This document shows, piece after piece, positions 6,301 through 49,561 of a stretch of DNA of 64,000 nucleotides (positions within the stretch are counted from its first letter, which is position 1; every line of letters begins with the position of its first letter). A program made the position numbers and the translations under genes. Source of the stretch: Glaucostegus cemiculus. Taxonomy: Eukaryota. Under the pieces are notes generated by a model. It was not told the DNA's origin. It did not search any database and was given only the letters and a program-made list of their open reading frames with translations. The stretch is taken from positions 25,978,001-26,042,000 of the forward strand of contig CDPCPM010000073.1 of the NCBI GenBank assembly GCA_976551045.1, read 5' to 3'.

Positions 6301-9300
6301 GAAATGTTTTCAATGTATTAATATCCTTGCTTAAAGGAAAAGATCAACACTGTATATAGTATTTCAAATGAGGCCTCACCAATACCCAATGTAACCAAGC
6401 ATATTCTCAACATTTTCATAAAATGAAAATAGAAATTACTAGAAAAAATATCAACAGGTCGGATAGCATCAACAGAAAGAGAATAAGTTAATGTTTCAGG
6501 TCAAAGATGTTTCCTCAGAATTCCTATTTTCATAGTCAATTATCCCTGCAATAAACACTGAAGTTCAGTTAGCTTTTCTAATTTCTTCCTGTGCCTGCAC
6601 ACCAGCCTTTGCATTTGTGTGTTAGGACAACCCGATCACTTTGTATCTCAGAGCTCTACAATCTCTCACTATTTAAATAATACACGATTTTTTGTTCAAT
6701 TCTCATGCCAAAATGGACAATTCTACATTTTTCCATATTATTCTCTGTTTGCCAGACTTTGTCCATTCACTTAACTCTCTATTCCCATTGTAACCTACTT
6801 ATGTCCTCTTTGCAACTTATGTCATTAGCATATTTAGCAATCATACCTTTGGTTCCCTCATCAAAATCATTTATAATATTGTTAAAGCCCCAGCACTATC
6901 TCTCTGGCACATCACTCTTTACATCTTGACATCCAGAAATAGACCCATTTATGCATGTTTTAATTTCCAATAGCCAGCCAATGGTTTATGCATGCCAATG
7001 TGTTACCTCCCATACCTTGACCTTTTATTTTCCTCAATAATATTTGATGTCGCAACTTATTTGAAACTGAATTCCATCCCCCCCCAAACCATTTGACTTT
7101 GCCCAACTGTCCTCCTATGAAGTTTTAAATAATAGTTTCTAACATTTTCCCAGCAACAAATGTTAAGCTAATTTGAACTCTTGTTTCCTGCTATATCTCC
7201 CTTTTTTTGAATACACGGAGAAGATAGTTGAACAATAATTAAACATATTCCCCACGGCTGTCCAATCCCCACAATATACTCTTACTCACATGTGATGTGA
7301 GCATTACTTGGTAAAACCCATCTATTGTTATTGTTTCTCACAAATTGCAAGTATCCAAACAATTGTGTCATCTATACAATAAACGATGAGGAAGTAATTT
7401 CCTCCAAAGAGATTGACCGACTAGACCGTCCTCAAAAGGAGAGTGGAAGATTATAGGTATGGATTATAACTAACAAGATAGTACTGTTCATAAATTATAT
7501 TTCATTTTGACATTAAATCAACAAGAGTGAGAGGTATGTATCACGTAGGTTGATGCCATTTAATTCTGTCACCTGTTATAGTGACTGGGAAACTTAATAT
7601 CCAGTGCCAGCAACTATTGAATGAAAATGGTTGGAGGATCAAATCCTATTTTCTGCCTTTCCCTCCTATTCTGTGCTCCTAGCTCCTGTATAGACCAATT
7701 AAAAGTCTGTTACAAATTGACAGTAGGAACAAACTCATGAATGTGGCATCACACTTCTGCCACTTATCTCATGGACAACTCTCACCAAAATTTCTTTACT
7801 TAATTGAGGAGCTTCTTTCTCCCATAAGCAAGGACAAGCATTTCCTTACAAACCCCCTAAGCCTTGGTATCACATCCAAGGAGCATTACCAGAACTAGGA
7901 GCAGCCTTTTAAAGGCGGCACTTTTATCCACCAATTTCTACAGTTCTCAACTCCAAAATCCACCAAAAAAAAACCCTGTTTGTGCAGTCCTGTTCAATAC
8001 TGGAATTGGAATCCACTTCTGTAGATCATCATCATTCATAATCACACTGATTGGCTGGGATGTTGGAAGCGGAACTACACCACAATAGGTTAGGTTAAAA
8101 AGCCATTACAGGCTCTCTCTATTACCTCCTACTCTCCGCATGTTAAGAAATTAAAATTCAGACTGCAATTTTTACAGTAGCCACAGTTCCAGGAAGTTAA
8201 AATAAATTGTAATAATTAACTATTTACCATACCTTTTTAACATGAAATATAATGAAGAACTTAATGATCTGTATTGCTGGTAAAAGAGGTGCAAAGAAAA
8301 GTCCAATCCTAAAAAAATAAACAAAGAACATTGGTAAATACAGAGTACTGAAAGTGCATAAATCTATGGACTTTTTAAAAAAGTATCTCATGTATGTCTA
8401 CTCACCATCCAAGCGTTTGTGCATAGATCAATGCTAATACATTCCTTGCGATGTCAAATTCTGGTATTCCAAGTTTTGGGCAGCAATGTGTCCCCATGAT
8501 GCTGAAACAATTTTAGAAATCAAGAGTTAAGTTGTTGATATTCCATTAAAAATATTGATTGCTGTGTCATTCCAGGTAATTTCAAAAATTACCATTATAA
8601 CTATCAATTGCTTGTTGTCATCAACTATTGTCATTGTAATTAATGCTTATCGTCAATTGTAATGGCTTATTCCAGCATAAATTGTAGGTGCCTGGATGAA
8701 GTTTCCTAATGAACTGAGACTCAGGGGTTGGGATAGAGACCAGTAGGTGATAAATGGAACTAGATGGAGAGGGGATGATGAACAATTTTATTGCTCCATT
8801 TACGCACGTTGTATAACTCTGCTCACATGGACAGTGTGAATTGTTCCTGAGGATACTAGGCTGAGGGGGGAAGGAGTTTGGGAAGGGAAGGGGTTAAGTG
8901 GGCAGGTAGGCGAGGAAAAACAGTACTGGACTTCATCCACCTTTAAAAGCAATAATTGTTTAACATTTCATTTAATTACAGGTTTGCAGCAATTAATATT
9001 TTAAGCGCAACACACTTGTCAAACCTCAAGGCGTACCTTCGAATGAATTCCCCAAAGAAGGAACTGAATAAGGAGAAGATAAAGTCAGTCACTACAAGTC
9101 GATAGAGATCTTGACCTACGAATGTTTCCCAACACTGTCAAGTAAACAAATGTCACACTTGAAATAAAATTTTGACAGGTAAAGTTTAAATCTCAAATAC
9201 TTATAGACAGTTTAGTTATGAATTGGATTGTAGTTAGAATGACAAATTGTAGAAAACAGAGCATACCTCCACTGTATCTGCTACTATCACCAACCAATAG

Positions 9301-12300
9301 TAACACAGAACTCCAATCATAGACATTTTCAGCAAAACATTTCTGTTTGGAGAAGAAATGAATACATTCACTATTAGTCAAACTTACTTCACACAGTAGT
9401 ACCTTAATCTCAGATTCATATTCTTCTACTAAGTGGAAAAAATATGGAGGTGAGTACAACTGGTTGCTGATACACTTGCTAGTGACAAAAGAATTTCTCC
9501 CCTAAAGGTTCTGTACAGCAATCCAGTAACATCACCTGAAATTGCTGAACTCAGTATTGAGTTCCAAGGGCAGCAAAATGCCCAGATGCTATGATTTGGT
9601 GCTGTTTCTCAGGCTTACATTGGCCCTCAATGAAACAGTGTAGGAGGCCAAGGACTGAAAAGTCAGATCGGGAATGGGATGGAGAATCAAAGCGATTAGC
9701 AATTGAGAGAATGTAGAAGTTCTGCCAAGTGGTCACCCAATATGGGTTTGGTTTTTCCAAATGATCAAATCCATATTGAGCTCACTGAATGCAACTGAAT
9801 TACTGCTTACCTTGGAAGGACTGTTTGGGTCCCTGGATAGTGGGAAGTGAAGAAAAGGACAAGTGTTGCATCTCCTAAGACTGCATGGAAAAGTGAAGCA
9901 AGAAGAGTAGTTGGAGGTGACAGAAGAGCAAACCAAGCAATTGTGGATAGAATGGATTGAATGTGGTTGAAATTGTGGAGGAAGATCAATCAAAAGTTGA
10001 GGCAGGTGGGATGGATGGGAGACCCTGCCCCTATTCTGGCTGAGATAACATGGCATGAGAAAAGTGTGGGAAATAGAAGAGATGGTTGAGAGCCATCAAC
10101 CATGGTGTGAGGGAAGCCACGGTAGGGGTTCCGCTCATCTTCATCTTCCATCCTACTAGCGTCCTTATTCAACAGAGCAGTGGCAGAACAATGGTATGGC
10201 TGGTAGAGCTGCAACCCTCAGCTTCAGAGGCCTGGGTTCCATCTTAGACTTGGGTACTGCCTATATGGAGTTTGCACATTCTCCAAGACTATGGCACTTT
10301 CCTCTGGGTGCTCCAATTTCCTCCCACATCCCAAAGATGTGCAGTTGATAGGTAGGCCACTGTCAATTGCTCCCATGTAGGTGGCTAGTAGAATTGTTGG
10401 CAATGTTGGGGAGAATAGCTTACTGGGAAAACTAGTGGGGAAAGGAATTGCTCTGTGAGCCAGCACAATGAAGGTAGCAATTCAGCTTATCGAATATTTC
10501 CTGCCAACATATAGGTTACCTTCTATAATATCTACCATCAACAGAATTTCTATCCTGCTTTTTCATCCTCCCGAAGGATGTTTGGTCTTCCATCTCCACC
10601 AACCACACCCCTTCTCAGGGCACTTTCTCAAGCACTCAAGGGTGCTAAACCTACCCTTTTACCTCTCTCCTCCCCGTCATCCAGGGATTCTACGTGAAGC
10701 AGCAATTCACTTCCACATCTTCCACAGTTTAGTGTATTGCATGCAGTGCTCACTGTGGTCTCTTCTACAATCAAGAAACTAAGCAGGTTGGGTGATTACA
10801 TTGCAGAACACTTCCTTCAGACCACAAGGATGATCCCAAGGTTTCAACTACGTGTCACTTTAATTCTTTGTCCCATTCCTACCTATGTCTCTGGTCTTCA
10901 ACACTGTTCCAACAATGGTCAACATAATCTTGAGTAACATTTCACACTGGATCTTTGCAACCCTTGGAATTCCATATTGAATTCAACAATTTCAGGTATT
11001 CAGCCTTTCCCTGTTTGTGTTGGAACTGATCAGCTCTGATGTAATGTAGACTTCTGGCAACCACTGAATTCTGCATTACCGTTCCAACATATTCTTTTGT
11101 TGCTTTTCTCACACCAACATCCAGCTGGCAAGATAATGTTGCCTGGGAATCTTTGACCTCTATCCTATAACAGAACTTTTCTTTTGTTCTCTCCATTCTT
11201 TCTCCTCTCTGTAACTTAAAACATGCTTATTTTCTCATGTTTCCTGTTCTTATTGAGGGTCATTGACCTGAATTGTTGAGCTGTCTTTCTCTACAGCTGC
11301 TGCCTAAACTGCAGAGTATTTCCAGCATTTATTGTTTCAGTAATTTAAATGTACAAATTTGATTGCTTTAAAACATTAACCAAAATCATCAGAAAACCAA
11401 ACAATGTTGTCCTTAAAGTTAATTTCCAAGGCAATTGTTAACACCAAAAATTTTATTTGATGGAAAAGTACCTTATAATAAGGACGTATATCTCATGCCA
11501 TGGATATTTGAATCTTTCCATAAAGCCAAGGAAAGAGAAGAATAATGGTATGAAGAGATTGATGCTTGCCACCAGAAAAGGCAAAAACAATGTTGCTGCT
11601 TGCTTTTGTAATTCTTCCTTAGTTGGATCTTTTTGAACAACCTATAGAAATATAAATTAAATGCTATTATTTTGCATTTTTAGAAGTTTAGAATACTCTA
11701 ATATATTATGCATCTTGCAACTATGATCTGAATACATTTTAGTTTCTCATACATCACAAACAACCTTTTAGTCCTTAGTGCATAGATTAAACTGTAATAG
11801 AAAAAGTTTCGATCCAGCAGATACCAAAAGTCAGCTCAGTTGCAGGCTTCTTTCTTCTCATCAGCAGACACTAACCCGAGTCTACGTTTACTGTTTTGTA
11901 TCTTTTAATCTTTCCCTGAAGAATAGGTTAAGGTAGTATGGGAATTCATAGGTTGATTAACCACCTGATAGGCCAAAGCATTAATGCTCCTATGATCCCG
12001 TAAAAATCTTTCTACTAGTTGATATGATGGTTAATCTAACAAGGTCAGGATGTTTTACAGGCTCATGCATTCATGCAATGCAGAGGGTCAAATACAGTCC
12101 ATATGACGAAAAAGGAACAAGAATGCCCAGGTTCGAGAGCCAGATCGCTTCCTTTTCTTACTCTCATCTAATTTAAATAATTCGCAATAACTAAGTTCCG
12201 ATAGCTGTTGAGGATATCTGCCTTTTATTCCATATCAGAATCTGCATTCACAGAACAATCCTATTTATTGAATGACTCAGCTTTGTTTTGTATTGCATAA

Positions 12301-15300
12301 TTCCATTAGCCTATAGTTAAGTTCCTAATTTTCCTGCTTCTTTGACTTCATCCTTGCCTGGAAATGAGAATATACTGAGAAGACAATTGTGTTGCAAATT
12401 TCTATCATTCACTTTACCATTTAATCTTAAATGCAAAGGGCTATCATTAAATTTCTAGCTAGACCCCAAAGCATCTCCAGGTTATTTTCAATGCGAGTGC
12501 ACCTTTGTAATTTGCTCTAAGGATGCACGAAATAATGATCATGACATCTCAAGATGCCTTGAAAAAACATAAAGCCTTTAACTTTCTGATAATTAATCAC
12601 ATGGTTGGAAACATTCTATGGTAGCAACTTCCTTTCCTCTTTTAAAAAAAAGTGAACTATTTCAGATTTTGTGACCAACCAGAACTTTTTATGGTAATTA
12701 TTTGTAGTGCTCTCCCCAAACTGATCATATTTATTTAATTTAATTTTTTTCCATTTGTAGGAACTCTACTGCACAAATTCACTCTAGAAAAAAAGAACAA
12801 ACATTTTCTTATTCTGGAGTATCTTAGAATTAACTTCAAAGATAAGGAAAGCATAGTTATCATAAAATATTACCCACATTTCATTCCACTACAGCATCTG
12901 AGGTTCATTACTTGTTTAAAACCATAACAGTTAAGCTTTTATCTGAAATATTTATTAATGCTTTAAAAACCCATTAAATTTGGTCTTGAAGAATTGTCTG
13001 ATGCAAACTGCTTATATTATTCCAAATAACAAATGTACAAATTGTAAGCAAAAATTTGCTGGTCAATTTCAAGTTTCCTAATAAAAATCCAGTGTCACTA
13101 CACTTGGCACATTTCAAACTCAGATTGTTCTGATGCACAACACATTAAATAAAGCCTTGCTCTGCACATGTAGATAAGAGTCATATAGCAAAGAAATGGA
13201 CACTTCAGCCTACATGTCCATGCTGACCATTTTGTCCATCTACACTAATCCCATTGCTGCACTAAGTCTGTCCTTGCCCATTCAGCAGCCTATGTAAGTG
13301 CCTCTTAAACATAGTAATTAAATCTGATTCTGCCACCTCCTCTGACAGCACGTTGCAGATATCAAGCAATCTCTGTGCAATAATGTTCTCCTCAAATCCC
13401 CTTAAAACTCCTTCCTCTTGCCTTAAACCTACAAGATTAATCTTGCCCACATCACATGGCAGTTCATATCAGAGTTCATAAAACTTGACATTGCAAAGTT
13501 GTTTAAGGCTACATCTTTAGATTTGGCGTCATTAATAACTAAACTTCAGACCTTCATAAGGGAATTAAGTAAAATGCTCATGTTCATGATAAAGTTCAAT
13601 CAATGTTACTAGTGCTATGATTAAGGAAAGTCAAATTTTAAAAACAATTTACCATTAGTTCTTTATGAACAAAACAACTATAGCTATACTTTTTCTACAT
13701 ACTCACTCTCCATAATCTAGATGTTTGGGTCTGCTTTTCTGTTCTACCTGTCAATGAAACCTCTGCAGCCTTTTGCTTAGTTGGAACAAGATCTTCCCCA
13801 GATTCCAGTTTCTGAGTTAACCAATTTAGCCAGAATCGAAAGTGTACTTGTTTTCCTAAATACTCTATGCAGACCGTCCTACCAGCTCTGTATATGTAAT
13901 GCCAGAGTTGCTAAAGCAGAAAGAAAGTATAGATTAACAGGTCACGTATCTTCATGATGGGTCTGGGAATTTTCTGTTGCAAACTGCTTATTACACTTGC
14001 TGACAAAATACAGAAGTCAGCACTGTTTTGAACATATAGACAAATGGGAAAACATTTAAGAATTTCAATAAGTGAAAATGAAAAAAAAAACTGCAGATGC
14101 TGGAAATCCAAAATAAATAAAAAAAATACTGGAAATACGCAGCAGGTAGGTTACATCTGTAAGAAGAGAAATAGAGTTAATGTTTCAAGTTGAAGACCCT
14201 TTGTCAGTATGTTCTGTTGGAGGGTCCTTGAGCTGAAACATTAGTACAGATGAGGCCTGATGTGCCGAGTACTTACGGCGCTTTCTGTTTTTATTTTAGA
14301 GTTTCACTTTGGTGAGATGTAGTGTACAATTTGTTTTATCTTTCTCTTTATATCTGGGGAAAATGGCCTAAACTTCCGGTGATCAGTTTAAAGGGCTATT
14401 CAAGGGAAGCTCTACAAAATTATTTTGTGTTAGTTTCTGGATAGCTAGTTGCTACAAATGAAGCCATCTTTCTTTGAAACAATTAGATTAGCCTAAACCC
14501 CAGAGTTAAATTTGAGTGCATCAGGGATTTTTATTTTATCAATAACCAGTGGTCACGATGTCAGTATATGATTTTCTGGCCTTCCGTCCTATGCAAACAA
14601 ACATTTCTTCATGCATTTCTATTACTAAATGTTCTAAAATTTTCTGACTTTATTGTGGTGATCATCTTTTAGTGAATGAACAACTCTTATTTAATAATAA
14701 GACCATTTACCAAAAAAATCTAACTCGAAGTAGAGTTTATCGTCATATGCACAAGTACACGTACACACAGGTGCAATGAAAAAGCTTACTTGCAGCAGTA
14801 TCATAAGCACATAGCATCAGATACACAAAATTCACGAGAAAAACAAATTATACATAATTTTTATAAGAAAGAACACAATTAGAGCCAAAAAAAGGTCCAT
14901 TATAGGGCAAAGTGATCAGAGTATTGCTATACTGAGGTAGCGATTAAGGTTGTGCAGTTTGGTTCAAGAGCCAAATGGTTAAAGAGAAGTAGCTGTTCTT
15001 GAATCTGGTAGTGTGGGACTTCAGGCTTCAATTAAATCAATGAATCAATGAAAGACGGTTGTTCATGACAGGAATTACTATTGGGATTGGCTGTATTTGA
15101 CTAATCTTTTTAAAATGATTTTGACATACAAAGTCAATGTTTATTTTTACCAATTTGAACTTCATTGATAAAGTTCAAGCAATTATGATGAAGGAATGTC
15201 AAATATTGAAAAGAATTTACCATTAATTCTCTAGAGTTTAACAAAATAACTGCAGCCATACTTTTCTTTCTACATTCTCGCTCTCCATAACCTAGGTGGT

Positions 15301-18300
15301 TGGATCTACTTCAGCAATATGGAAGCTAATAGTTTATCACTGGGGGGTATACCCAATCCATTTTGTTGGCATAATATCCCCCACTTTCAACATTCACTCC
15401 TTCACCAACACCTGCAAATACACTGCAGAAACTTCCTATTCAGTTTAACCTTCCAAACTTGCAACTTGTATAATCTAGAAAAATAAAAGCAGCAGGTGCA
15501 CAGAAATGCTGCCTTCTGCAAGTTCCTGGTCACAAGGTCTCCTGAATTAGAAACATATCACCATTCCTTCATAATTATTTTGTCTAAATACTGAAATCCT
15601 TACCTCACAAAGAAACTATCATAAGTTTTGCAGCAGTTCAAAGTGGCAGCTTGTCACCACTTCCTCAAGGGCGATTAGGGATAGGCAATAAATGCTGGCC
15701 TTCCTAGCTATACCCACAATGGTGTGACTGAATGAGAAAAAAAAACCTGCTGCCTCTTCCTCACCAGCTGCATCATGCCACATGCCATATGAGATACCCA
15801 TATGGGGGAATGTAGCTGGTAAGAATTTTCAGCAGATCAAATCATGAACTCTTGCATGAATAAGTGTTAGAGGAGAAGGGAGCAAAGTTTAACTTTACAC
15901 CAAGAAAAAATTTAGATGGCTGCAATGCAAACAGGTGAGTAAATAATTAAAAATCTGCCACATTTTCTATTGTCTTGGAATTATTTTTCTCCTCCTTTCT
16001 CTCCCTCACACATATAAATAGAATCTTTAGTGTTAATGTGACTTTTGCTGAAGGTGTATAATTGACCATATTGACTTGGCTGTCCATTTTACATTTTGTG
16101 TTTTTCACTTCCATTGCCTTTCCTCTCCAGGTTGCTAACAAAACAGATGACGTTTTGTGTGCATTGTGAGTGATTTCTCTTCTTTTATTGCGACTGATCA
16201 CATATTCACAAATCCTTCATCGTTTTCCTTAGTATTTTATTGGCCACTTTCCTTAATTTTCAGCTTTTTGGGTCTTTTTTGTTTTTGCTACAATTTTGAT
16301 TTCCATCAATCAACTGCATGACAATGGAATTATAATGCCAAAGTGTGAGAATTGTGGGATGTGTTACACAACAGGAAGAACATTATGCATTTCTGAGATA
16401 GCTGCAGACCTTTTGGCCCCTTTTGTTCATGCCAACTCACAGCAAAACTATTCCATCAGTCCTGTTACCCTACTCCTTATTTTACCTGTAGTCCTGCAAT
16501 TTATGCTCATCAATTCCCCTTTGGTTCTTTTTGCCAGTTACCTACACTCTGGATTAATTTACAGTAGCCAATTAACCTACCAGCATATCTTTGGGATGTG
16601 GGAGGAAACTGAAACACCCGAGGGAAATTCATGCAGTCATGGGAAGAAGGTACAAATTCCACACAGATAGCACCTGAGGTTGAATCCAAGTCTCTGTAGT
16701 TGTGAGGCAGCTGTCCCCAATGTAATCATTCTCATAATGATGAGCTAATATCCCATGGAGCTGTACACAATCATAATCTTTGGATGAAGGGGATTAGTGA
16801 GTAGGAGAACTGGACTAGGGTGCTCAATCATTTCCATTTTAAAGTCATTTTCTGTCTAGTTTTCCAAATTTGATTATATCATTTGTAATATTCTTTGTTA
16901 AAATTTCAAAACACTAAGGTATATTTGACTACAAATAGTCATTGCTGCACATATTTTCTGAGCAGAAAATTGGGAGAAAAAAAGATGAATTCTGAGATAA
17001 AGGAGGTGCTGAAATACATCTTATCGCACATGGTCTCAGACCATCTATCAGGCTATCTAAAGCAGTATTAAGGTCCTTGAATATACGAGTCAGTTGCTAA
17101 ATGATGCTGTTGGGATTATTCCATTACATTTAATGTCACTGATCTGACCAGGTTCTGCTCATTTATTGAAATGTGATGTGGCCTTACCAGAAGTCCTGAA
17201 AGGAACCATGGGAGGTCACCACCAAAAAGGCTGGTCAATCAATGTGAATTTACCTTTAAAAGATAGAACTGCAAGAAAGCTCCTCAGAAATCAAGAGCAT
17301 AGTACTCCTGAGGATTGTTGTCAAGCTTCACTAGCCCCACTTATAACTTCCTCACTACTTCCCAGAAACTACCAGGGGATAGCTGCTGGGGGTCTAAAAT
17401 GGGAACAGATTGAAGTTGTGAAATGGATAAGAAACGCAAGGTCTAACCACACAAAGAGGAAAGGTAATCAGCATTGAACTGGCAACTAACCACACCAACT
17501 AGCCTTTTGCAGCTGGGGACTTGGTGCTCCGCTGCTGAGCAAAAGGGATACTCAAGGTTCTGCTCAAATAAAATGATGTTTTCTTTTCTCCTCCTGATTT
17601 TGTACAGACTTTTCAGGATTCAGGTTTACCCCATTTTTGATCACCTGTAACCTACATCTTACTCAACCAGGATTTACAGAGGCAGGTAAAGAGGAATTCC
17701 TGGTATAAGGGGATTTCCCTCCACTATTGCTCCCTCAGGGAAAACTGTTGACATAACTTGCTTCGCAGGTGCATTCCTCCTTTTTCAAGGCTAACTAGGG
17801 ACTTACTGCAATCAGATCATTTTCCCGTGGTCCTCACAGGACTTGTACTTCAGCAGAGCCCCACCATATTGGGAGCAAAAAAGAAATGGACAACTTTATG
17901 GTTTAAATGACATTGGAACAATATTATCATGCAGTTTATTTGTTGGATGATCAGATTACAACTGCAATCATTTATGATGAAGGTTTTATACTTTTTTTTG
18001 GATGCTAAGCATATAATACTGGCACCAGATTAACTTTCAGCAAATTTATGGATGGCCTCTAAAGCGACCAGACACTGAATGATGACATTAACAGAAATAA
18101 AATGATCTATGTAGTTTAGAAATCAAGTATCACAGGGTACAAAGTGAAATTTGTAAGTACATACCTGAAAATTAGAAACAGAATAGAAATAAACTCCCAT
18201 ACAGCAGCCTAATGTTGTACCTAACGAGATAATCCAAGTCATCAGATGAATTAAACATCTCACAATTTTCTGTTTTCTTGTTAGTTGCCTCTTGTAACGC

Positions 18301-39300: not shown

Positions 39301-42300
39301 CAGTGGATATTACATAAATCTGTTCAAACTGTCTGCATGCATACATATTTGTATCTAAATACTTGATCACTGGTGAAGTAAGTTTCTGTGGGTGAGGGCA
39401 ATGAGACCTGGAGCCATGTTGTGTACGTGGAACAGAGGTGCATGGTAGATGAAAATAAATAATGCTTACCTGACTCTTGGTTTGAAATGTCAACATTTCC
39501 ATGAAGGTCAGGTATGAATGAAGGATCTTGTTGGCTACGCCCATCATATGTTGATGAAGCAGAGCTATAAGATTCATCTGTTATTGGCTCAAATCCAGGA
39601 TTAACTATCCAATGGAAACAAAAAATACAGTATTTGTAAAAATTTGATAACATATGCTTTAATGTACTGTTTCTGTTTTTACCTGTACTACATCAATGCA
39701 CTTTGTACTAACTCAATGTAACTGCACTGTGTAATGAATTGACCTGTACAATCGGTTTGTAAGCCAAGCTTTTCACTGTACCTTGGTACAAGTGACAATA
39801 ATAAAACAATACCAATACAGTGATTGAATAATCAAGGGAGCTGTTAGGCAGAATACAGGAACTTTTCCATTGCTGCTTTTACAGTGCTGAGCTATGGTTC
39901 ATTTTGGTAGGTCAAATATGTTGGATGAATATAGTATTAATGGTAGGACTCTTGGCAGTGTGGAGGATCAGAGGGATCTTGTTTTAGTTTTGATTCTCTT
40001 TGAAAGAAGGTGTAACCATGATATGTCAAATGGTCTTTTCTTCTACTATAAACCTGTGACTTAGTTTGCCGTTTTGATATTTTAATTGAAAATGTTTCAT
40101 ATTCATTTTTAAAAACATGCCTACAATAGAAAATGTTTGGTATTTTTGCTTGATTATTGTATCTAATTCTAAACAAACATGTATTTATTTATTTTCTTTT
40201 TAAGACACTCAGTACTATGGCAGAGAATAATGAAAGAACCCGAGATCAAGTGAAGAATCTGTTACTCATTCAGCCAGCAGGTCAGACTTACACTGAAGAT
40301 ACTCATATTGTCTCTTGTCCAGATGTTATTAAACAATAATACACAATTTTCAATAATATTAACACATTTAACCAATACCTCATACATAAATGATACAGAA
40401 TTGCCACCATTTCATCCTCATGAGTGTTTCATAAATGCATTCAATACAAATCAGTATTTTGAAGTCAAATACCTATTCTAAACAATAGCTCCAAGTAATA
40501 CAGAAAACATACCAAATCCAGTGTTATTTTCATATGGATTCATGTTAGTGAATCGAGGTCTTAATTCACTGTGTTCTCTTCCAATTGTCGTCATTTGTAT
40601 AGTCTCTGGCCGGTCCCAATTTCTCCAAACACCAGATGAATCAAACAGATCCCGCTGGTCGGAAGATGGCAATGAAGTTGTGCGGAATGTAGATCGCACC
40701 TGTGTACTAACAGAGCAGAACACAAAAACTAGCACAATGCTGCATTGCTTGATTATTCATAACGTATGGATTTTGCTTTGTAATATTAGATTCTGGGATC
40801 ATCTGAAGTTCTTTGCTTATGTGCACTGATGTCCCAGCTTAATAGTGAATTGAGAGACCTCATTAATGAATTCAAACTGGTAGTCATTAAGCATGTTTTG
40901 AAGATGCTACAAAATATATATCCAATGTTTTTACAAGATGCTTTTGCCTATGCAAAGTTAATTTTCTAGAATCTACCATTTGTTAAACTTCTTTTACTCA
41001 AATATATCCATGTCTTTTTTTTCAGTAATGTGAAGTTAACCTATAAAGTAGAAATACAAAATATTATGCTTCTCCTGCAGAGCATTGTATGTTGGACAAT
41101 AAGCAAACATTATTCCTTAATTTCCCTCAAGACTACAATAATTATAAAACAAACACCAGAGAATTCTTCTGTGAATATCATGCTCATTAGGTTAACTACA
41201 AGAGTTTTTTCAAAAATATCTAAGAAATAGCATCAACATTTTAATGTTATTTTAGCTTCTATCAATCTCTAATTATTAGCTATCAATAACAAGAGATATT
41301 TTATTTCTTAAGCAGGAAAGTCATTCCTTAACAATCCCTACTTTAAAAAATAATTACCATTGTGAAATACATACACAGCTTTACCTCACACAAGACTGAG
41401 AAGACTAACAACTACATAAAGAATACAAGTCATACTCATTTTAAATAATTACAGAGTAGGGAAATGTTGAAGCTATAATTTAATTGATGCTCAAGCCAAT
41501 TCTTAATTCTTGTTATATAGAACGTCACTTGAACTTCCCCATTAGGTTACTGACTGATAACTTGCAATCATTCATTATACTACGTATCACTCTTACAGGG
41601 TATTTCTACATTTTTTGCCTTGTTAGCACAGAAGAAGTGTACAGTAGAAGGAAGAAGCTTGATCGTCTTGTCAGCAGTAACTCAGCATTGTTATGGGGGT
41701 TAGTAAAATATTGCTTTCTTGACCAGACATACAGTGCCTTCAGATTTCAATGTTTTGAGCATTGGGGAAAGGTAGCGATGCAATGAAGGGAAGAATATGT
41801 GGAATAATCCAATGACATCACCAGATATGTACTTTTTAAAATTCTGCTTCTCTTTGAATGATTGAAAATTCTATATTTTAGGCTACCTATTGTTAACAAT
41901 AACAACAAATGCACTGTAGGGATATCATCACGTTCTAATGAAATAAAATGTGGAGCAAAGCTTTCAGGGTTAAATTGACTAAGATCATCATACTATCTAT
42001 TCACATTTATATACAATGCACAATATTTAGTGCTGTTTGACAATATGCACAATTGATTAAAATGTCTGGTATAACCATCCTTCTATGGCAAACAGCGTAA
42101 TGCAAGGTCAAATATTGTTGGTGAACGGAAGTAGTTCCATGGCAAGTTTGGACTTGAGCACATACAAATTCAAATGCAGAAATCTGGAACTTGCCAACAG
42201 CCAAGAACAGTCCATTGGAGAAGCGTAAATTTGTTTGCTCACAAATCCAACACCAGGTTAGACACAGCGCAGGATCAGAAATCCTGCATCGGGACTGGCT

Positions 42301-45300
42301 AGCATGTTGCACCTTAATGATCCAAATCAGGTAAAGACAGGGCAATGAGGAATCAAAGTGGTGACTGCTTGCAGCAAGTACCACTTGACAAATCTGGGCC
42401 TAATGACATATGATCCAATAAGTTACGCAGTTAAATATGTTTTGGTTCCTGCAGGCATTCTGTTATGAAAATGTGATATATATTAGGTCTGAAACCTTCT
42501 TTTCAAATCTGCTTAAAATGAGAAAACTCCTGAAGAGGTAGTGTCACTGATCAACGCTGGGGACTTGTTATTACAGTTGCCCATCAAGTTTGACCGAATG
42601 AAAAATAAAAATGATATATTGACACATGACATTATCAAAGACTTAATATTTCTTCAAAATTAAAACATCTTATTTGGTTCAGTGGTGGCACTCCCTGTCT
42701 CTAAGTTAGGAGTACAGTCAAGTACAGTAAAGTCCCATTCCAGAAATTTAAGTATATGGTCTAAACAGAAACTTTGGTGCTTAGGGAACATTGGTAGAGA
42801 CAAAATGAGACAGAGACATAATGGGGAGAGGGACAGAGAGGGAGATGAGAACTAAAAGTAAATACCTTTTGCTATCTGAATTACCAATTCACCAATGCAG
42901 CTTTAGAAGTTCCTGTTGCTTACACAGCTTCTTCCACCTTTTATTCCATTCTGCCTATCTACCACTACCAAATTCTCAAAACTGCTTTCCCATTCTTCCA
43001 CAGTCCCTGGTTTCTCCTTTATGCCTGGTATCAAATGGTCTCCTGGTTCTTGGAATTTTCCACAAATTGGCTGCTGCCTCAACACCTTACAAAAAAAACC
43101 CCAGCTTTCCAATAAAACGTAACAACATTTGTAGAGGACATGTTATCATGATCAAACCTCCAGGAAAAGTCTCTAACTAGAGTTAACATTAAAGTTGAAA
43201 ATCCAAAAATGCAGCATAGAAGCACAGACAATGAAGTTGAACCTGACAATAGTTATCAAAGTATAAGCAGTAGAATAAGACTGACAAACATTATATCAAG
43301 TTGCACTTTTGGATGGGATCATGCAATCAATCAGCTGCATAAATCACTAGCCGTATAAACTGTTCTTTTATCCAAAAATAAAGTTCATTTCCTAATGGTC
43401 CTGCTCTCTATTTATTTGGTCTACCCACAGAGGGTGGGTAGAAAAAAAAGTTCTTTTGCCTGAAACAGTTGAAAGAGTTTGCAACTAACTTTCTGAACAG
43501 CACGATCATGAAATAATTTTTCCAATTGAGCACATCGTAGAAGACATTTTAAAAAGAAGTTGTGAACTGATATATTTTTACTAAAAATTTACTTTATTCA
43601 TATTATATACAATAGAGACACGTCTTTCCCTACATCCATTGTACCATCAAGTCAATACATTCTGTCACTACATGTCAACACCCCTCATGTTTCCTCCTTA
43701 AATAAAGCATTTGTCAATTATTTGAGGGACTGTTAAACAGGGACGAGCCTCTCTATGTTGATTGGCAATGGACCTTACATTGTCATCCTTCCCTGCAGAG
43801 CCTTTGTAGTGACTGCTCTGAGCCTCAGGGTGTCCCTCAGCATTTACTCCTGTACCGTGGAATCTACCAGTTGGCAGCATTTGCTTGCTCACATCTGCTT
43901 ACACTGGAAGACCAACAAGTTTCAGTAGGCCAATCTGTCAATGAGTTGATAATCTTCCAGCAGCTGTTGATGTTCATTTCAATATGCTTCCCTGGGAATA
44001 ACCCGTAGAGTCCTGTGTTACATAGCCACCTAGGACAAATCTTGATAAGGACTGCCGGACCCCTTTCTAGCCCTTCAAGGCAAAGGCACCGCCCACCAGG
44101 AGACTGACAATCATCTCATCCTCACTACAGCCATCTTGAGGACAGCTTGCAATGGGACTGAAGCCCTACATGAAGGATCAAATGGAGAGGGCTCCTCTCA
44201 TTACCAGCTAAGTGAGGTCTTAGTGCTTGTTTGACAATTCTGGCAATAAGGCATTCCGCAAAATGACTTAGATCCATCCCACTGGATCTATTGTCTTTTT
44301 CTCCTGCAGAGCCTTCAGAATGGTCCGCACTGATATTTGTGGTTGGTAGTGCTTTTCTGCAGGAATTTTACCTACAAAGGTCAGGTAAATAAGCTCAACT
44401 GCCATATCCTAGTAATTAACTGTTCTTTGTGCCAGAATTATATTAGCTATCATTCAGAATTGCCAAGTGTTTTTGAACAATCGACTTTAGAAAATCTGAT
44501 TTGGTACAGATTTAATATACTGAAACTATGCTGCTTTTGTCCTAAATAGAATGCAAGATGTTGGGCCCAGTACTAAATCTGTTCATAAAGTAAAAGACAC
44601 AAGAAGGAGTTTATAATCTACTTATCATATTAATCTGGGCACACAAATTACTTAGCAAGCTTTGATCTTTACCCTTTTAAAAATCAGCCATTGTTTTACT
44701 TCCAAATACATTGATCTAGCTTATCAATGCAAGGTGAATATTACACAAAAATATAAACTTGCAAGTAAAGGCTCTTTTTATAGTCTGAAATAAATTGGCA
44801 TGATTCAGAGAAAATGCTTAAACTGAAGTGAAACAAAAGCACATATTGCTGTTCTCCCATGAAATGAGAAGCCTTTAATATTGAAACTAACCTCAATTAT
44901 TATTGTATTTTCTTGAATTATTTATTTAGGTAGCCCTGGATTTACTTGAGTGTTGTGTTAATTGGACAAATGGATGCATTTCCCAAAGGTCTGGTTCAAG
45001 AAATGATAGATTCCCATATCTTTTAGTTCACAGATCCATGGGTATGTTTGCATTTTCCAAGAAGACCTTCTACTGTCACTTCAGCAGAATGTTGGTAGAA
45101 GTCAAGGCAAAAGTACAAGTGGCCATTTAAATTGCTTCTTGGAGGCTTATTTTGATCTCTCACCCCAGGGAAATTCTTCTCCAGCATTTTTTGCTTTGTT
45201 CAAAAATAGAAAGATAACTGCTAAATATCTTGATAAGATCTCTTCAGACTTCCTGCTGTGGCATGAGTGGAAACCCTGGAGAAATGGGAGAAAGTATAGA

Positions 45301-48300
45301 TATGGCTTTGCCTAATGTTGTGACCATAACAGAGATCCTTCCAACACTCCAGATATTATCGATCTGCTTCGAGGATGAGAAACTCCTTGAAACATTTCTT
45401 CTAGCAGAACTGGGGGCACTTTTCTTCCTTTAGCTCACTATGACAGTCACCTCATGTGATCTGACTTGGCCATCACATCTATGTGGAATGTCTGCCCATG
45501 TGCAAACCATGTGCCTTGACCCACATCTTGACATTTTATCTTTCTTCAGAGGTTTACATTAGCCCAACAAAGTCATAAGAGATGGGGAAAATTATGGACC
45601 TCCAAATTTGAGAAATAGATTTTTAGATTTTAAAGGAATCAGGGTATGTGGGAATAGTTCAGGAAAGTGGTGCCGAGGGAAAAGATCAGCAATAATCTTA
45701 TTGAATGGAGGAACAAACATAAAGGGGATGAATGACCCACACTTGCTTTTATTTTTTGCTGTTCTTACTTTCTTATTTTGTGTTGAAGCTAGCTTTGGCT
45801 GATCCACTATCAGTTACCATAAATTTACCAACACCAGTTGCGTAAAATGCAATACTGACATTCACAAGATCTTTTGTATTCTCTCCCTCACCTCATTGCA
45901 ACTAAAATCTAATTTTAAAAAAATTTCCATCTCTATTCTGATGAAGAGTCTTTGACATGAAATGTTAACTCCCGTTTCTTTCTATAGATGTTGCCTGAAC
46001 TACTGAGTGTTTCCCACATTCTGTTTTTATGCCTGCTGTTCTCTTAAAACTTGCATCAACCTTAAAATTTCTTCTAAATTAAACTGGCTCATATTTTTAA
46101 AATACTCACAGCAATTTAGAGCTCTATCTTCTCTGAGGGGTCAACTAACAGAACTTGATTCAACTGAATTTTTAACTCCCTTCATCTATGTTCACAAGCA
46201 CACTTCATACCAGGGACATATTTTAAAGGAACATCGACACATTGGCACATAATCTTTTCAAGGATCTCTCCACTTTAATAACCTGATTAATTAGTAATAT
46301 AATCCTAGGGTATATAAATCACAAATCTTAGATTTTCAGCATTCTTGCTATGTTTTTTCTAAAGAAAATATGATCCGTCAAGTCTGCATTGCTGTATATG
46401 CTATAAAAATACTGAAACAAAAATACATCAAAATCCACTCATCCTTCTTGTAGCTATGGGTTTAAATTACATAACTTCACATAAAAGATACATATATACT
46501 TTCAAGTACTGTTCTGCCCATCATAAAATAGGCCCTTGCATACCCCTTTCAAATCAAAGTTAAATTTGAGCTTAATTTTCACTGATATTTCCTACTAATC
46601 ATTTGTTTGAAATATTAGATAACTATATGGAAATACAGGGAGGCTCTATCATGTAAATTCTGGAGTTTGTTTCCAGAACAATGCAAACATTTCCTGCTGC
46701 TTATATGTGATGCATGTTTTTTTAAATTTAAGTTGGTACTTTCAGAGTAATATTTTTATACTTTCAGAGTAATATTTTTATCTTTCATTATGTTTGCATT
46801 TTACTAAGATTAAAAGAATAAGAGCTATAGCAATCTAAATTTAATATTATTTTCTGTAATAAATCGCGTGCAACAATAACCAGGGCAGGAGGACTGAGAT
46901 CCATGGCCAATGCAAGGGAGTTAAGGCCACTTCTAATCAGTCACAAATGGATCTTGAACAGCTTAGACAATGCTACTTATGGGACCAAAAAAGGGACAAG
47001 GATTCAACTGAAGGGACATAGATTCAACATGGGAAGTCAAAAAGGGTCCAAGAATTTTCAAAATATTTTTATGAAGAATTAAGGACCAGAAGAACAACTC
47101 CTTACTTCACAGAGTGACCAAGACCAACGCCATTCTAGCCCCTACCCAGTTATCTCCTCCTGTTGGATTTGCTTCTGCCCTTCATACGAGTTGAAATGCT
47201 TATGGTTCAGAGAGGACCTACAGACAGCAGAATTTTTTTTGTCTAGGTGGATCTAATGATAATTTGCATACATTGGGACAGATTTTGCAGAAAACTACTC
47301 AGAGTCCTTCATGTATGTACGACCATTTGGGATTTCTAGAGAAAGGTGACCAAATTTGCCAGCCATTATTCACAAGCAATTTCCTGACTGCTCTCTGATA
47401 TCATTGAAATGCAAAGCTGTGCCAATTCCCAGCACTTCAGTTGGGGAATCTGTATGTTGAACCTGTGCCAGATTAGCCCAGGTGCAGAAATAACAGCTGC
47501 ATATTTGAAAGAAGTGGAACATCTGCAAGGGAACAGGATAGTAGCTCATTTGTTTTGATTAAATGTTTCTAATGGTTCTTGTATTTAGTTTTTATTTATA
47601 TTTAAATTAATAATTTGATTTACTTTGTAATAGTTTTCCAACATTTCTGAATGCCAGAGATTTTCCATTGGTTTGATAGTCACCTAATCACTCCGCTACC
47701 ACTATGATGGTGCCCTTCTGCTTGCTTGGGCCTTGCCATTGAAGACTGAGCCCACTTTGGAGCCAAGGCTGAAACTGGGGGCCTGCAAAAGTTCAGGCTT
47801 TTCCAGCACTGCCAGAAAATTCTGGCCCAATGATATTTTGCTTACACAGTGCATAGTAATTATACAAAGTGGTGCATTCAGGGAAATATCTAATATCAGT
47901 CACAAATAAGACCATCTTTATTATATAAAGCTTTCTCTCTTATTTGCTCATCTTCCATCATTATTTATGGTAGGGAATTTCTTTCATTACAATTATTTTC
48001 TTAATCTCTCACTCATTTCTTTGGTCATGGATTTTAAATTAATATCCTGTAGTTAATAATTGACTAATATTAAGTTGCCCTCTTTAAATAATCACATTTG
48101 ATCATAATTTTGACCACATTTTAGATAAAAGGGAAAGCACAAAAAGTACCAGATTTCAGTAATCATAGACAAAATCTCACTGTTTTCTTTCTAGATGCTT
48201 CTTTCCTTAGCACATGCAAAATTGGAGAGAATATTCTGACAACTGTCTAACCAACAGGACTGTTATTTGAGGCAATTATGTAGTTAGTCGGTTGATACAT

Positions 48301-49561
48301 TGGAATGTTTTACTATCTATGAATAAAGAGTCATGAAATAAATATTTTTATCAGGATATGTCAAAAATATGCTAAAGTCTTGAAATATCCAAGTATATAA
48401 ACCTAGTGCATGATTAATCACACACTAGTCTAGCAGTAAATGCTGGAAAACCTCAGTCAGGCAGCATCTGTGGAAAGAGAAACAATCAATGTTTTGGGCC
48501 TGCAACCTTTCTTCAGACCTAGTCAGTGAACATCTTTGAACTATGCTTTAAAGAAAATATGCATCTTTCATCTTACTATACTTGCAAATTGCTTTGGAGG
48601 CTTACCTCTTCGTGAACCATGCTTATGGTTCATAAAACTGCTTGGCAGACACTGCCACTGTACCAGAATGGCCATAATCAGTCACAATTGACGTCCTTCA
48701 TAATGCTGACCATAATCAATACTCTCCTATAGTGAAGCCAAGGCTTTGAGATGTTCAAATGGTCAATCACTAATTAACTTTTTTAATCAATACTTTGCTC
48801 TTTCTATACAGTTTGAAATCTGTGCAGTTGAAACTGGTACATTGAACCTTTGCTTGAATGTCAACAGCCAACCCTGCAATCATTTTATTTTTGATTCTGA
48901 ACTACCAAAATAATTTTATTATGCAAGCATTACAACATGTCACAACATTATTTTGCTTCTCAGTCACTGCATGCAATGCATTAGTTAATTCTGCTTTCTG
49001 GAAATACTCATTAACAGGCTTTTACATGAACACAGCCAGGTAATCACTGACAGAAAAACCAATAAGGAAATTGGCAGCATAGACAAATCTTTCACTGTTA
49101 AAGAATGTTTTGTTCTTTTGGTTATAATGCTTCCAAATGCACTGTGTTCTCTAACCTGTTGAGTCCAGGTTATATTTTAATATTGCTCATTTCAGACACA
49201 CTGAATACAAAGGAAACATTGGCACTGGTAAGTTTCCTGGAATTTGCTGGCAGTCTTAGGGTTAGTAAGTTTTTTTTGCTTTGACATAAATATGGCTAAT
49301 AGGCAAATTAAATGACTAACCTGTTTACCTGATCAAATTGCACCTGTGCTGGCAGAATCCATTTAACTCTTTAAAGTACAATTGCCAAGAATAAGGAGAT
49401 GTTTTGGGGTAGTATATAATAACTACAATATTAGGTGATTAACAAATGTTACTAATCTCTTATTGCTACTTGTTTAATTCATACCCTCTGTCCATTTCCA
49501 GTGTTTCTGAGTGGTGATATGCATAGTTTTCAAAGCATTCATTATCTTCTTGATGGTTCAT
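243..49561 (-). CDS. TMC5: Transmembrane channel-like protein 5, spliced gene span (17 coding exons in window; 3' end lies beyond position 1)
   Basis: The joined exons give one open frame of 733 codons with TMC motifs [54 protein letters not shown] and CGPFRGL. The N-terminal SETLEMDRG and VNPGF segments and the exon order match recalled TMC5. All intron phases are compatible. Confidence 0.9.
927..1205 (+). mobile_element. tRNA-derived SINE (V-type)
   Basis: A-box/B-box (gggttcaattc) and central ggagtttgtacgt...ctgcgtggttttcctcc. Confidence 0.9.
1500..2300 (-). mobile_element. Degenerate L2-like LINE
   Basis: Reverse-complement similarity to 62200-62750. Confidence 0.5.
2530..3075 (-). mobile_element. 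Rex1/Babar-like 3' fragment
   Basis: Tail ggtttattattgtcacatg...cagtgaaaagct; inverse of the tail at 39670-39818. Confidence 0.65.
3226..3393 (-). CDS. TMC5: TMC5 exon ([13 protein letters not shown]...[11 protein letters not shown])
   Basis: 168 nt, phase 2-2; CGPF motif. Confidence 0.96.
4653..6104 (+). repeat. ~215-bp local direct duplication (4653-4871 and 5893-6104)
   Basis: Shared block ataatgacatctggtttaatgctgtgcacatcattctctttcagggcattcctta. Confidence 0.9.
5094..5227 (-). CDS. TMC5: TMC5 exon ([21 protein letters not shown]...GVTVW)
   Basis: 134 nt, phase 0-2. Confidence 0.96.
5700..7200 (-). mobile_element. Old CR1 remnant, interrupted by a local duplication at 5893-6104
   Basis: Degenerate CR1 3' tail and RT-like sequence similar to the 19-21 kb element. 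Confidence 0.65.
8233..8308 (-). CDS. TMC5: TMC5 exon ([25 protein letters not shown])
   Basis: 76 nt, phase 2-0. Confidence 0.96.
8406..8501 (-). CDS. TMC5: TMC5 exon ([32 protein letters not shown])
   Basis: 96 nt, phase 2-2. Confidence 0.97.
9037..9134 (-). CDS. TMC5: TMC5 exon ([32 protein letters not shown]), start of TMC domain
   Basis: 98 nt, phase 0-2; CWET signature. Confidence 0.97.
9267..9342 (-). CDS. TMC5: TMC5 exon ([25 protein letters not shown])
   Basis: 76 nt, phase 2-0. Confidence 0.93.
9535..10165 (-). mobile_element. Penelope-like element fragment (GIY-YIG region)
   Basis: [15 protein letters not shown]...EKQHQI resembles the PLE endonuclease C-terminus. Confidence 0.7.
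10176..10468 (+). mobile_element. tRNA-derived SINE, related subfamily
   Basis: gggttccatc B-box, ggagtttgcacattctcc core. Confidence 0.8.
10500..11340 (+). mobile_element. Penelope-like element fragment with terminal repeat
   Basis: [16 protein letters not shown] motifs; terminal ...agtatttccagcatttattg. Confidence 0.7.
11472..11641 (-). CDS. TMC5: TMC5 exon (VVQKDPTK...[12 protein letters not shown]...[15 protein letters not shown])
   Basis: 170 nt, phase 0-2. Confidence 0.93.
13175..13440 (-). mobile_element. CR1 3' fragment
   Basis: Translation ...[23 protein letters not shown] resembles the CR1 ORF2 end. Confidence 0.7.
13583..15311 (+). repeat. ~150-bp diverged direct duplication (13583-13736 and 15161-15311)
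   Basis: tgataaagttcaa...aatttaccatta...ctctccataa occurs in both copies. Confidence 0.8.
14725..15030 (-). mobile_element. Rex1/Babar 3' fragment
   Basis: Close match to 38240-38555. Confidence 0.75.
16425..16715 (-). mobile_element. Old SINE
   Basis: gggatgtgggaggaaactgaaacacccgaggg is the inverse of the SINE core. Confidence 0.75.
18165..18320 (-). CDS. TMC5: TMC5 exon (EMLSDKMRY...[15 protein letters not shown])
   Basis: 156 nt, phase 0-0, canonical splice sites. Confidence 0.92.
18859..19036 (-). mobile_element. 3' end of a second CR1-type family
   Basis: Tail cacaagaccacaag plus hairpin ggccattcagccc; similar to 29966-30315. Confidence 0.75.
19037..21553 (-). mobile_element. Young 5'-truncated CR1 LINE: C-terminal part of the APE endonuclease plus a complete reverse transcriptase
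   Basis: ORF 19128-21581 without stops: [19 protein letters not shown] (APE); [32 protein letters not shown] (RT). 3' hairpin (ggcccttcggccc) and 8-bp tail repeats (TATTGTTC)n at ~19037-19068. GC- and CpG-rich compared with the flanks. Confidence 0.97.
21963..22107 (-). CDS. TMC5: TMC5 exon (IAKSFNENF...[26 protein letters not shown])
   Basis: 145 nt, phase 2-0; TMC WDF motif. Confidence 0.95.
22275..23830. mobile_element. Penelope-like element fragments in inverted arrangement (minus ~22275-23370, plus ~23395-23830)
   Basis: Terminal motifs at both ends facing outward; internal PLE-like coding remnants. Confidence 0.6.
24129..24280 (-). CDS. TMC5: TMC5 exon ([13 protein letters not shown]...YNMQLAY...SLVY)
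   Basis: 152 nt, phase 0-2, canonical splice sites. Confidence 0.95.
25626..25874 (-). CDS. TMC5: TMC5 exon (SLRRFREN...[20 protein letters not shown]...GLELLTGA)
   Basis: 249 nt, phase 0-0, canonical splice sites, TMC first transmembrane region. Confidence 0.95.
27500..27760 (+). mobile_element. CR1 3' fragment
   Basis: Reads [24 protein letters not shown], followed by the 3' hairpin. Confidence 0.8.
28755..28793 (+). ncRNA. Degenerate hammerhead motif
   Basis: CAGTT-CTGATGA-A-AGGTC-ATT-GACCT-GTAAT; perfect helix II, but the GAAA box is mutated. Confidence 0.55.
29258..29348 (-). CDS. TMC5: TMC5 exon ([30 protein letters not shown])
   Basis: cag| acceptor after a pyrimidine tract, |gtaagt donor, phase 2-0. 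Confidence 0.82.
29966..30315 (-). mobile_element. CR1 3' fragment
   Basis: Tail cacaagatcacaag, hairpin, and ORF2 C-terminal sequence. Confidence 0.8.
30700..30950 (+). pseudogene. Harbinger transposase C-terminal remnant
   Basis: [23 protein letters not shown] resembles ALQY....IILACCVLHN. Confidence 0.5.
31292..31575 (+). mobile_element. tRNA-derived SINE, same family
   Basis: Matches 927-1205; tail atcttatctt. Confidence 0.9.
31580..32100 (-). pseudogene. Degenerate Harbinger/HARBI1-like transposase fragment
   Basis: [12 protein letters not shown] and [17 protein letters not shown] resemble recalled Harbinger motifs GISQASMSRCV and WLLGDSSF. Confidence 0.45.
32169..32207 (+). ncRNA. 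Minimal hammerhead motif
   Basis: CAGTT-CTGATGA-TAGATC-TAT-GACCT-GAAAC-ATT-AACTG; perfect 5-bp helix I. Confidence 0.65.
32994..33030 (-). ncRNA. Minimal hammerhead motif with intact ACGT palindrome
   Basis: Minus strand AATT-CTGATGA-AGAGTC-TCA-GACCT-GAAACGTT-AATT. Confidence 0.7.
34404..34506 (-). CDS. TMC5: TMC5 exon ([35 protein letters not shown])
   Basis: cag| acceptor, AG|gtacaa donor, phase 1-2; TMC N-terminal helix motif. Confidence 0.9.
35322..35733 (-). CDS. TMC5: Probable alternative first coding exon of TMC5 ([13 protein letters not shown]...NDARWK, 137 aa)
   Basis: ATG with A at -3; 412 nt open in AT-rich non-repeat sequence; donor AAAG|gtaatg, phase 1, compatible with the next exon at 34506. 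Confidence 0.65.
36330..37060. mobile_element. Penelope-like 3' end (minus) with an inverted GIY-YIG piece (plus, ~36860-37060)
   Basis: gaaaatgaggtgttgttcc at 36841 is the inverse of acaacacctcattttcc at 37021; terminal motif contains a hammerhead core. Confidence 0.72.
36419..36456 (-). ncRNA. Minimal type I hammerhead ribozyme motif (Penelope-associated)
   Basis: Minus strand CAGTC-CTGAAGA-A-GGGTC-CT-GATCC-GAAAC-ATT-AACTG: both core boxes, helix II and helix I arms. Confidence 0.7.
38228..39245 (-). mobile_element. Rex1/Babar-type LINE fragment
   Basis: Frameshifted RT: [55 protein letters not shown]; 3' tail at ~38228. Confidence 0.88.
39470..39604 (-). CDS. TMC5: TMC5 exon ([12 protein letters not shown]...ISNQES)
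   Basis: Acceptor ...ggatag|TT; donor G|gtaagc; 135 nt, phase 1-1. Confidence 0.8.
40513..40706 (-). CDS. TMC5: TMC5 exon ([10 protein letters not shown]...[17 protein letters not shown]...NNTGF)
   Basis: Acceptor ctctgttag|T, phase 2; donor G|gtatgt, phase 1; 194 nt open. Confidence 0.8.
43585..44340 (-). mobile_element. Tx1/L1-clade LINE 3' remnant (probably continuing at ~45080-45560)
   Basis: Degenerate C-terminus resembling NLLVFQ...CCQL...[11 protein letters not shown]; poly(A) signal at ~43591. Confidence 0.6.
45935..45970 (+). ncRNA. Degenerate hammerhead motif
   Basis: CTGATGA-AGAGTC-TTT-GACAT-GAAAT-GTT-AACT. Confidence 0.5.
46737..46780 (+). repeat. 22-bp tandem duplication
   Basis: (tactttcagagtaatattttta)x2. 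Confidence 0.9.
49485..49561 (-). CDS. TMC5: TMC5 first coding exon ([26 protein letters not shown]); the exon probably begins at acceptor 49639 with 5' UTR
   Basis: ATG at 49561; donor GG|gtatga, phase 2; upstream acceptor tttttaag|. Resembles recalled TMC5 SETPKMTRG. Confidence 0.75.

Follow-up and report, generated by a model that had tools for sequence, protein, structure and literature searches.

Minimal hammerhead motifs in the TMC5 introns of the batoid Glaucostegus cemiculus as probable fossils of a Penelope-like element family

The introns of TMC5 in the batoid Glaucostegus cemiculus hold a number of short motifs with the core letters and the pairing of a minimal hammerhead ribozyme. 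It is very likely that these motifs are the terminal-repeat hammerheads of an abundant Penelope-like element (PLE) family, present as truncated, often inverted stubs that have probably decayed neutrally and that are predicted not to cut in TMC5. As found, the feature is ordinary and matters little by itself. It extends the PLE minimal hammerheads to a batoid genome, that is, a known kind of transposon-borne ribozyme in a new host, represented here by fossils.

The repeat unit and its copies

We refer to the whole stretch of DNA analyzed, 64 kb in length, as the window. A first profile was built from 30 genome loci with intact cores and run on the window, where 17 of the 20 matches had E < 0.01; against the same profile, the reversed window and five shuffles produced a best E-value of 0.84. 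Using a profile of older copies (n = 30), 18 of 20 matches had E < 0.01. An earlier note on this DNA had reported about a dozen minimal hammerhead motifs, and all 12 sites that it named are among these 18, displaced by 1-5 nt, with the unit at 52381 marginal (E = 0.0099). The Rfam hammerhead models have no match in the window, nor in five loci holding intact genome copies; since intact copies are missed as well, the Rfam blank in the window carries no weight.

The recurring unit extends beyond the 37-nt motif, as a conserved tail of ~60-70 nt always continues from the motif. In the 30 intact-core loci, similarity runs from ~50 nt upstream to ~90 nt downstream of the core, and the full repeat of ~100-140 nt, which contains each motif, is the terminal repeat of a PLE. 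There are also units that have the tail and no hammerhead motif. The family majority has the core C3-U4-G5-A6-N7-G8-A9, G12-A13-A14-A15, U16, H17, together with the features of type I: an extra nucleotide between 9 and 10.1, a paired helix II, and a short helix I that closes the ends. A palindrome, ACGU at 15.1-16.1, replaces helix III. In pattern-selected rows, 88% of the helix cells are paired across subfamilies, and individual window copies have one or two mismatches per helix. The helix II sequence AGGTC, given earlier for the recurring unit, represents a sub-lineage only, as position 10.1 is G in 18 and A in 11 of the 30 older copies.

The host gene is TMC5, on the minus strand. Its exons match the TMC domain and the solved TMC-1, and the best named homologues are all TMC5, with ray and sawfish proteins at the top; the first of them is 100% identical in the query exon and 91-98% identical in several others, which points to a batoid close to the sawfishes as host. 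The first coding exon was placed at 49561-49487 by tblastn. By the older-copy profile, 15 of the 18 units lie within TMC5 introns and three upstream of the coding span. The description of the named sites as intronic thus applies to ten of the 12, five of them sense, and may not extend to 52381 and 63340, which lie upstream of that first coding exon. The intronic units show no preference for orientation, with seven sense and eight antisense to TMC5 (n = 15, binomial P = 1.0). The gene and the units are as follows.

243..49561, minus: TMC5 coding span seen in the window
49561-49487, 40693-40514, 39605-39471, 35528-35322 (cassette), 34765-34648, 34506-34404, 29348-29255, 25874-25626 and onward, minus: TMC5 exons, approximate positions
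36419..36456, minus (sense): minimal hammerhead motif that keeps its core letters, from the subfamily with a 2-nt loop; G10.1-C11.1, palindrome worn to ACAU, A/C mismatch at 1.1-2.1; AUU cleavage site, predicted scissile bond 36424/36423
36356..36859, minus: PLE 3′ end carrying the 36419 motif, with the ORF C-terminus (…EQHLIF…FSHFK stop), pyrimidine tract, hammerhead and tail
36868..37037, plus: inverted, 5′-truncated piece of that PLE ORF end, head-to-head with 36356..36859
32993..33031, minus (sense): minimal hammerhead motif of the older 3-nt-loop subfamily (the 32994 motif), core letters and ACGU intact; GUU cleavage site, predicted bond 32998/32997; helix II with G-U at 10.1-11.1 and then an A/C mismatch, helix I of four AU pairs
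32169..32207, plus (antisense): motif that keeps its core letters, with A10.1-U11.1, a single mismatch in helix II and ACAU as palindrome
32347..32442, plus: degenerate unit that follows the 32169 unit ~180 nt downstream, its core broken
28755..28793, plus (antisense): motif with perfect helix II, A-U closed; A13 changed (GUAA)
28489..28548, minus: unit that consists of the tail only, in a divergent pair with the 28755 unit
45933..45971, plus (antisense): intron 1 motif that keeps its core letters, with a helix I of only 2 bp, a helix II mismatch and the palindrome AUGU
48483..48521, minus (sense): intron 1 motif in which A replaces the catalytic G12
6485..6523, minus (sense): motif with core letters intact, two helix II mismatches, palindrome ACAU
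11244..11282, plus (antisense): motif whose core is broken, with PLE ORF remnants 10586-11002 (plus) and 9531-9953 (inverted) to which it forms the 3′ end
14113..14295: head-to-head fold-back pair, 14174-14212 minus and 14209-14247 plus, both cores mutated
22316..23815: divergent degenerate pair, 22370-22316 minus and 23738-23815 plus, with PLE ORF remnants 22436-23079 in between
2435..2509, plus (antisense): partial unit starting at GAAA
51750..51802, minus: unit reduced to its tail, upstream of the first coding exon
52377..52457, plus: marginal unit upstream of the first coding exon, helix II deleted
63303..63363, minus: degenerate unit that has lost C3-U4 and, by a deletion, the cleavage region; also upstream of the first coding exon

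The 18 units correspond to fewer insertions, since inverted or truncated PLE pieces and head-to-head pairs are shared by units. All core letters are kept in five of 17 units (36419, 32994 and 6487 in sense; 32169 and 45935 in antisense). The suspicion that most copies have decayed is borne out: the other 12 have broken core letters, with 28755 (A13) and 48487 (G12) less damaged than the remainder, and the five intact-core units each show damage to at least one of helix I, helix II and palindrome. No unit among the 17 is intact by all structural criteria; only 32994 retains ACGU. For 36419, the mismatch at 1.1-2.1 is enough for it to fail the filters of PMC3088659.

Other repeats occur in the window. 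A second, SINE-like family has copies at 930-1215, 31298-31562, 50031-50264 and 60491-60680. A LINE lies in sense in a TMC5 intron, with a frame of 826 codons at 19131-21608 (minus) containing endonuclease and reverse-transcriptase domains. A LINE-like 3′ fragment at 38224-39580 (minus), with an ALKBH8_N-type Pfam match, sits directly downstream of the 39605-39471 exon and has a relative at 14715-15032. There is a direct duplication of ~215 bp (4653-4871 and 5893-6104) flanking the 5230-5093 exon, and a further local one at 13583-13736 and 15161-15311.

Relation to Penelope-like elements

The assignment of these motifs to the type I minimal hammerheads of PLE termini, in which helix III is cut down to a palindrome, is supported by the repeat and by its ORF context. 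Upstream of intact copies lie GIY-YIG frames, with Pfam PF01541 matching in three of three (E-values 9e-5 to 4e-4, one above the cut-off), and in one of four in another set of upstream frames. All of the GIY-YIG-bearing frames that were translated are degenerate or frameshifted. Motifs resembling reverse transcriptase, read by eye rather than scored by a profile, lie further upstream in line with the unit in L136, which is related to the 36419 element, and are also found upstream in L118. Within the window, the 36419 copy aligns to the PLE end over ~500 bp and adjoins the inverted piece; the PLE piece at 36356..36859 is 7.4% divergent from the majority of 19 relatives. PLE ORF remnants also adjoin the 11246 unit and lie between the 22370 and 23738 units.

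Truncated PLE copies with an adjacent inverted piece are a layout already described (10.1101/2021.04.23.441226). Inverted pairs of units occur in 11 of the 16 loci L039-L054, and none of the loci read holds a full-length element between two direct terminal repeats. No convincing target-site duplication was found in the window, where the matches are 7-9 bp and at chance level; for the 36419 insertion the candidate is 7 bp long, at 36315 and 37071, and also at chance level. Separately, we observe in L039-L054 (for instance on G000:C161, C75 and C32) a near-identical degenerate inverted PLE insertion on several small contigs, a recurrence that suggests segmental duplication or a satellite and not fresh transposition.

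The closest known system is the minimal hammerhead of the pLTRs of metazoan PLEs (Cervera and De la Pena 2014, PMC4209133). The likeness covers the CUGANGA with its extra base, helix II, GAAA, the palindromic 15.2-16.2, an NUH site and a short helix I, and also the genomic layout, in which truncated PLEs have left single copies dispersed in their thousands, with opposite-strand pairs 100-700 bp apart. The motifs here differ in having a helix II of 4-5 bp as opposed to 7-8, in a far higher copy number when decayed copies are counted, and in that all window copies are damaged. The Poseidon PLE of Anolis carolinensis (PAc; PMC11167929) offers a second comparison. It shares the vertebrate reverse transcriptase with a C-terminal GIY-YIG, the hammerhead near the insertion end, and the tail, and its internal start of reverse transcription would explain the retention of the motif in stubs. 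Unlike the family described here, which is known from broken copies alone, PAc is a full element with protein-dependent activity in vitro.

Along these lines, reverse transcription may begin downstream of the motif, so that nearly every 5′-truncated insertion would carry it. The masters of the family would have had a working ribozyme, cutting as a dimer through the ACGU palindrome and probably with help from the PLE protein.

The best-surviving alternative, which we still consider improbable, is that the units belong to an independent non-autonomous short element, either retrozyme-like or SINE-like, and are not PLE stubs. Many older units are indeed only 100-140 nt long with little similarity upstream, and PLE-derived retrozymes have been described in vertebrates, including one chondrichthyan (10.64898/2026.07.22.740005). 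These non-LTR retrozymes are, like our units, PLE-related and non-coding with type I hammerheads, but the same text defines them by at least two tandem units with complete motifs, of which the window has none. The absence of tandem arrays in the window, the variable 5′ ends and the lack of convincing target duplications speak against a short element, as does the position of both older and younger units right beside PLE ORF remnants, direct or inverted.

No paper on hammerheads in sharks or rays was found in the literature, where closed retrozyme supplements may list a chondrichthyan family. The supplement text of PMC4209133 that could be searched names no shark or ray; one further supplement file, outside that search, may add species. 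Neither was any paper found that links TMC5 to a ribozyme.

Abundance, subfamilies and decay

The family is abundant, with units on both strands across the whole genome. Three exact patterns gave 533, 624 and 3740 matches in the 2.85-Gb genome, and zero for the reversed control of each. A PLE ORF query returned 44,647 candidates at first look; 106 of these were scored. As background we used 40 arbitrarily placed 10-kb stretches (400 kb) with the same score cut-off as in the window. They contain 67 units, compared to 17 in the 64-kb window (P = 0.11), so that the density around TMC5 is not clearly higher than in the genome at large; reversed background controls (200 kb) gave none. Extrapolated to the genome, this amounts to ~480,000 units, or ~17 per 100 kb. 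At such a fossil density, caution is needed in ribozyme scans, and a few intact-looking sense cores are expected in any long gene.

A single background unit out of the 67, L089:6310-6404 (plus), is intact by all structural criteria, with a GUC site and the ACGU palindrome. In a contrast that goes against our reading, intact core letters are more common in the window (5 of 17) than in the background (5 of 67, P = 0.025), also when the contrast is restricted to units that span the core (5 of 10 versus 5 of 32, P = 0.04), and the per-position rate of core mismatches does not differ between the two (P = 0.18). The window was picked for its visible motifs, and two of the five intact cores are antisense; the remainder of the excess is unexplained.

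The units fall into at least three subfamilies. In a young one the loop is 2 nt long, the closing pair is G10.1-C11.1 and the site is GUC; that of 36419 has the G-C closing pair with GUU; and an older one, to which most window copies belong, has a 3-nt loop, U2.1-A1.1, GUU, and U11.1 opposite G or A. In this older lineage U11.1 is ancestral, as genome patterns give 1156 matches with TG and 129 with CG or CA, and CA accounts for ~73 of the first 100 CG and CA matches listed. The palindrome CpG, by contrast, has decayed evenly and appears in the 30 older copies as TG in 11, CA in 9, and is kept as CG in 4. By eye, among the first 100 matches listed, an ATT loop often goes with A10.1-U11.1, and the loops TTT, TCA and CCA go mostly with G10.1-U11.1.

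Between subfamilies the pairs change together, with C-G versus U-A at 2.1-1.1, and G-C, G-U or A-U at 10.1-11.1. These are pattern-selected rows; they suggest, short of proof, that the master elements kept the hammerhead fold under selection. We considered the U11.1 closing pairs as a possible new ribozyme variant and rejected it, because the published alignment in Fig. S3 of PMC4209133 already has G-U and A-U closing pairs (in the cichlid, Xenopus 1, Latimeria 1 and 2 sequences), together with GUU and AUU sites. The series of subfamilies (GUC with G-C; GUU with G-C; GUU with G-U or A-U) could be used to test which minimal hammerheads PLEs need.

For the inserted copies the picture is different from that of the masters. 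The 36419 motif has 4 differences in 38 positions, and the rest of its element the 7.4% divergence given above. Thirty relatives of 36419 were gathered with a query that lacks the motif: 10 have a changed G12, two show deletions in the core, all core letters persist in 15, and two are intact by all criteria. Since half of its relatives keep all core letters, the intact core of 36419 is unremarkable. Counting all core mismatches there is a deficit, which also goes against our reading, both in 20 relatives of 36419 (3 versus 16.4 expected) and in the relatives from the motif-free query (9 versus 23.4 expected, P = 0.018). The deficit disappears for singleton mutations (5 versus 6.6 expected, P = 0.30, in a test of low power). 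Selection on the genomic copies was therefore set aside as an explanation, and the deficit is read as the result of several masters and of ascertainment. The marks of domestication that we looked for, selection on the motif and sense placement, are not seen (singleton P = 0.30; 7 of 15 sense). After insertion, CpG deamination would erase the palindrome, and in younger subfamilies G12 too, and other mutations would then break the helices.

Cleavage of the TMC5 transcript

Even intact PLE minimal hammerheads show no cleavage as monomers and weak cleavage as tandem dimers (PMC4209133). The anole PLE hammerhead needs the protein, is dispensable for insertion in vitro, and has no RNA-seq reads ending at its site (PMC11167929). 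Judging from modelled folds, we consider it unlikely that the window copies cut the TMC5 transcript.

A slim chance, somewhat below that of the short element, goes to a few copies keeping a trace of activity in trans, with intact PLE transcripts or PLE protein, and with no regulatory meaning. The best candidate would be 32994, which keeps ACGU and GUU. Intact copies do exist (the 533 exact matches and the one background unit in 67), and the requirement for the PLE protein in the anole (PMC11167929) fits this possibility. On the other hand, the homodimer fold of 32994 comes to +8.1 kcal/mol, the translated GIY-YIG frames are all broken, and the missing read ends in the anole study also count against it.

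The earlier note had placed the sense copies 36419 and 32994, 3.4 kb apart, on either side of an alternative first exon and the 34506-34404 exon. They do flank exons, three rather than two: 35528-35322, 34765-34648 and 34506-34404. The first of these matches an internal in-frame exon in two of 120 homologues, both from skate (P0004, P0011). Upstream of its acceptor at 35528 an open frame of 211 codons, 35859-35322 (minus), has an ATG near 35732, and it is plausible that 35528-35322, extended to this ATG, serves as an alternative first exon of TMC5. The upstream extension has no match among the 120 homologues and none in the protein atlas.

The further proposal was cis pairing of these two copies with cleavage of the TMC5 pre-mRNA; as a double hammerhead that cuts around the three exons, the pair might tune isoforms or output. 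This is not supported, and we regard it as the most remote of the readings discussed here. In a double hammerhead each core acts on the cleavage strand of its partner (legend to Fig. 1 of PMC4209133). As 36419 and 32994 are from separate subfamilies, their swapped helix I strands make a poor match. Mismatches fall in helices I, II and III: helix III forms three of four pairs, the exception being a C/A mismatch beside 15.1-16.1; in one swapped helix I the scissile pair is a C/A mismatch; the second swapped helix I forms four of five pairs and relies on the weak helix II of 32994, with its G-U and A/C at the base. The active-dimer fold has an energy of +12.3 kcal/mol, 26 kcal/mol above the best cofold (−13.7 kcal/mol). 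Pairs of intact copies (30 copies, 435 pairs) have a median of −10.1 kcal/mol, and none of the 435 is as poor, for energies calculated without tertiary contacts and control copies picked for intact helices. Random pairs of old copies are as poor in 27% of cases, so the pair falls within their range.

In its favor, both copies are sense, keep all core letters and lie around the three exons, one swapped helix I is nearly complete, and the window has its mild excess of intact cores; moreover, domesticated intronic hammerheads are known in amniotes (PMC6155905), and weak stems can still work in natural hammerheads (PMC3088659, section 8). Against it, besides the pairing and the energies, half of the 36419 subfamily keeps its core by chance and there is no strand bias, and a short isoform starting at 35732 would exclude 36419 from its RNA. 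The type I hammerheads of RECK and other amniote genes resemble the present motifs in being intronic and on the pre-mRNA strand; they are single and highly conserved (PMC6155905), whereas ours are minimal, multi-copy, on both strands, and mutated at the rate of the repeat. The form of the idea that relies on the more complete helix I, in which the 32994 core would act on the AUU site of 36419, perhaps with the PLE protein, and cut the pre-mRNA upstream of the cassette exon, is just as remote. Were cis dimers between separate fossils to cleave pre-mRNA, transposon debris would have a new way of regulating genes, and, with some half a million such motifs in the genome, chance dimers would make intron cleavage a general process that has gone unrecognised in cartilaginous fishes.

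Two smaller observations concern structure around the units. The 32994 motif has a 13-bp fold-back upstream, and its tail is broken by a fragment of another repeat. In the background, a fold-back PLE stub at L089:9375-9507 gives Rfam matches to plant microRNA precursors that are below the gathering scores; stubs of this kind would make long intronic hairpins.
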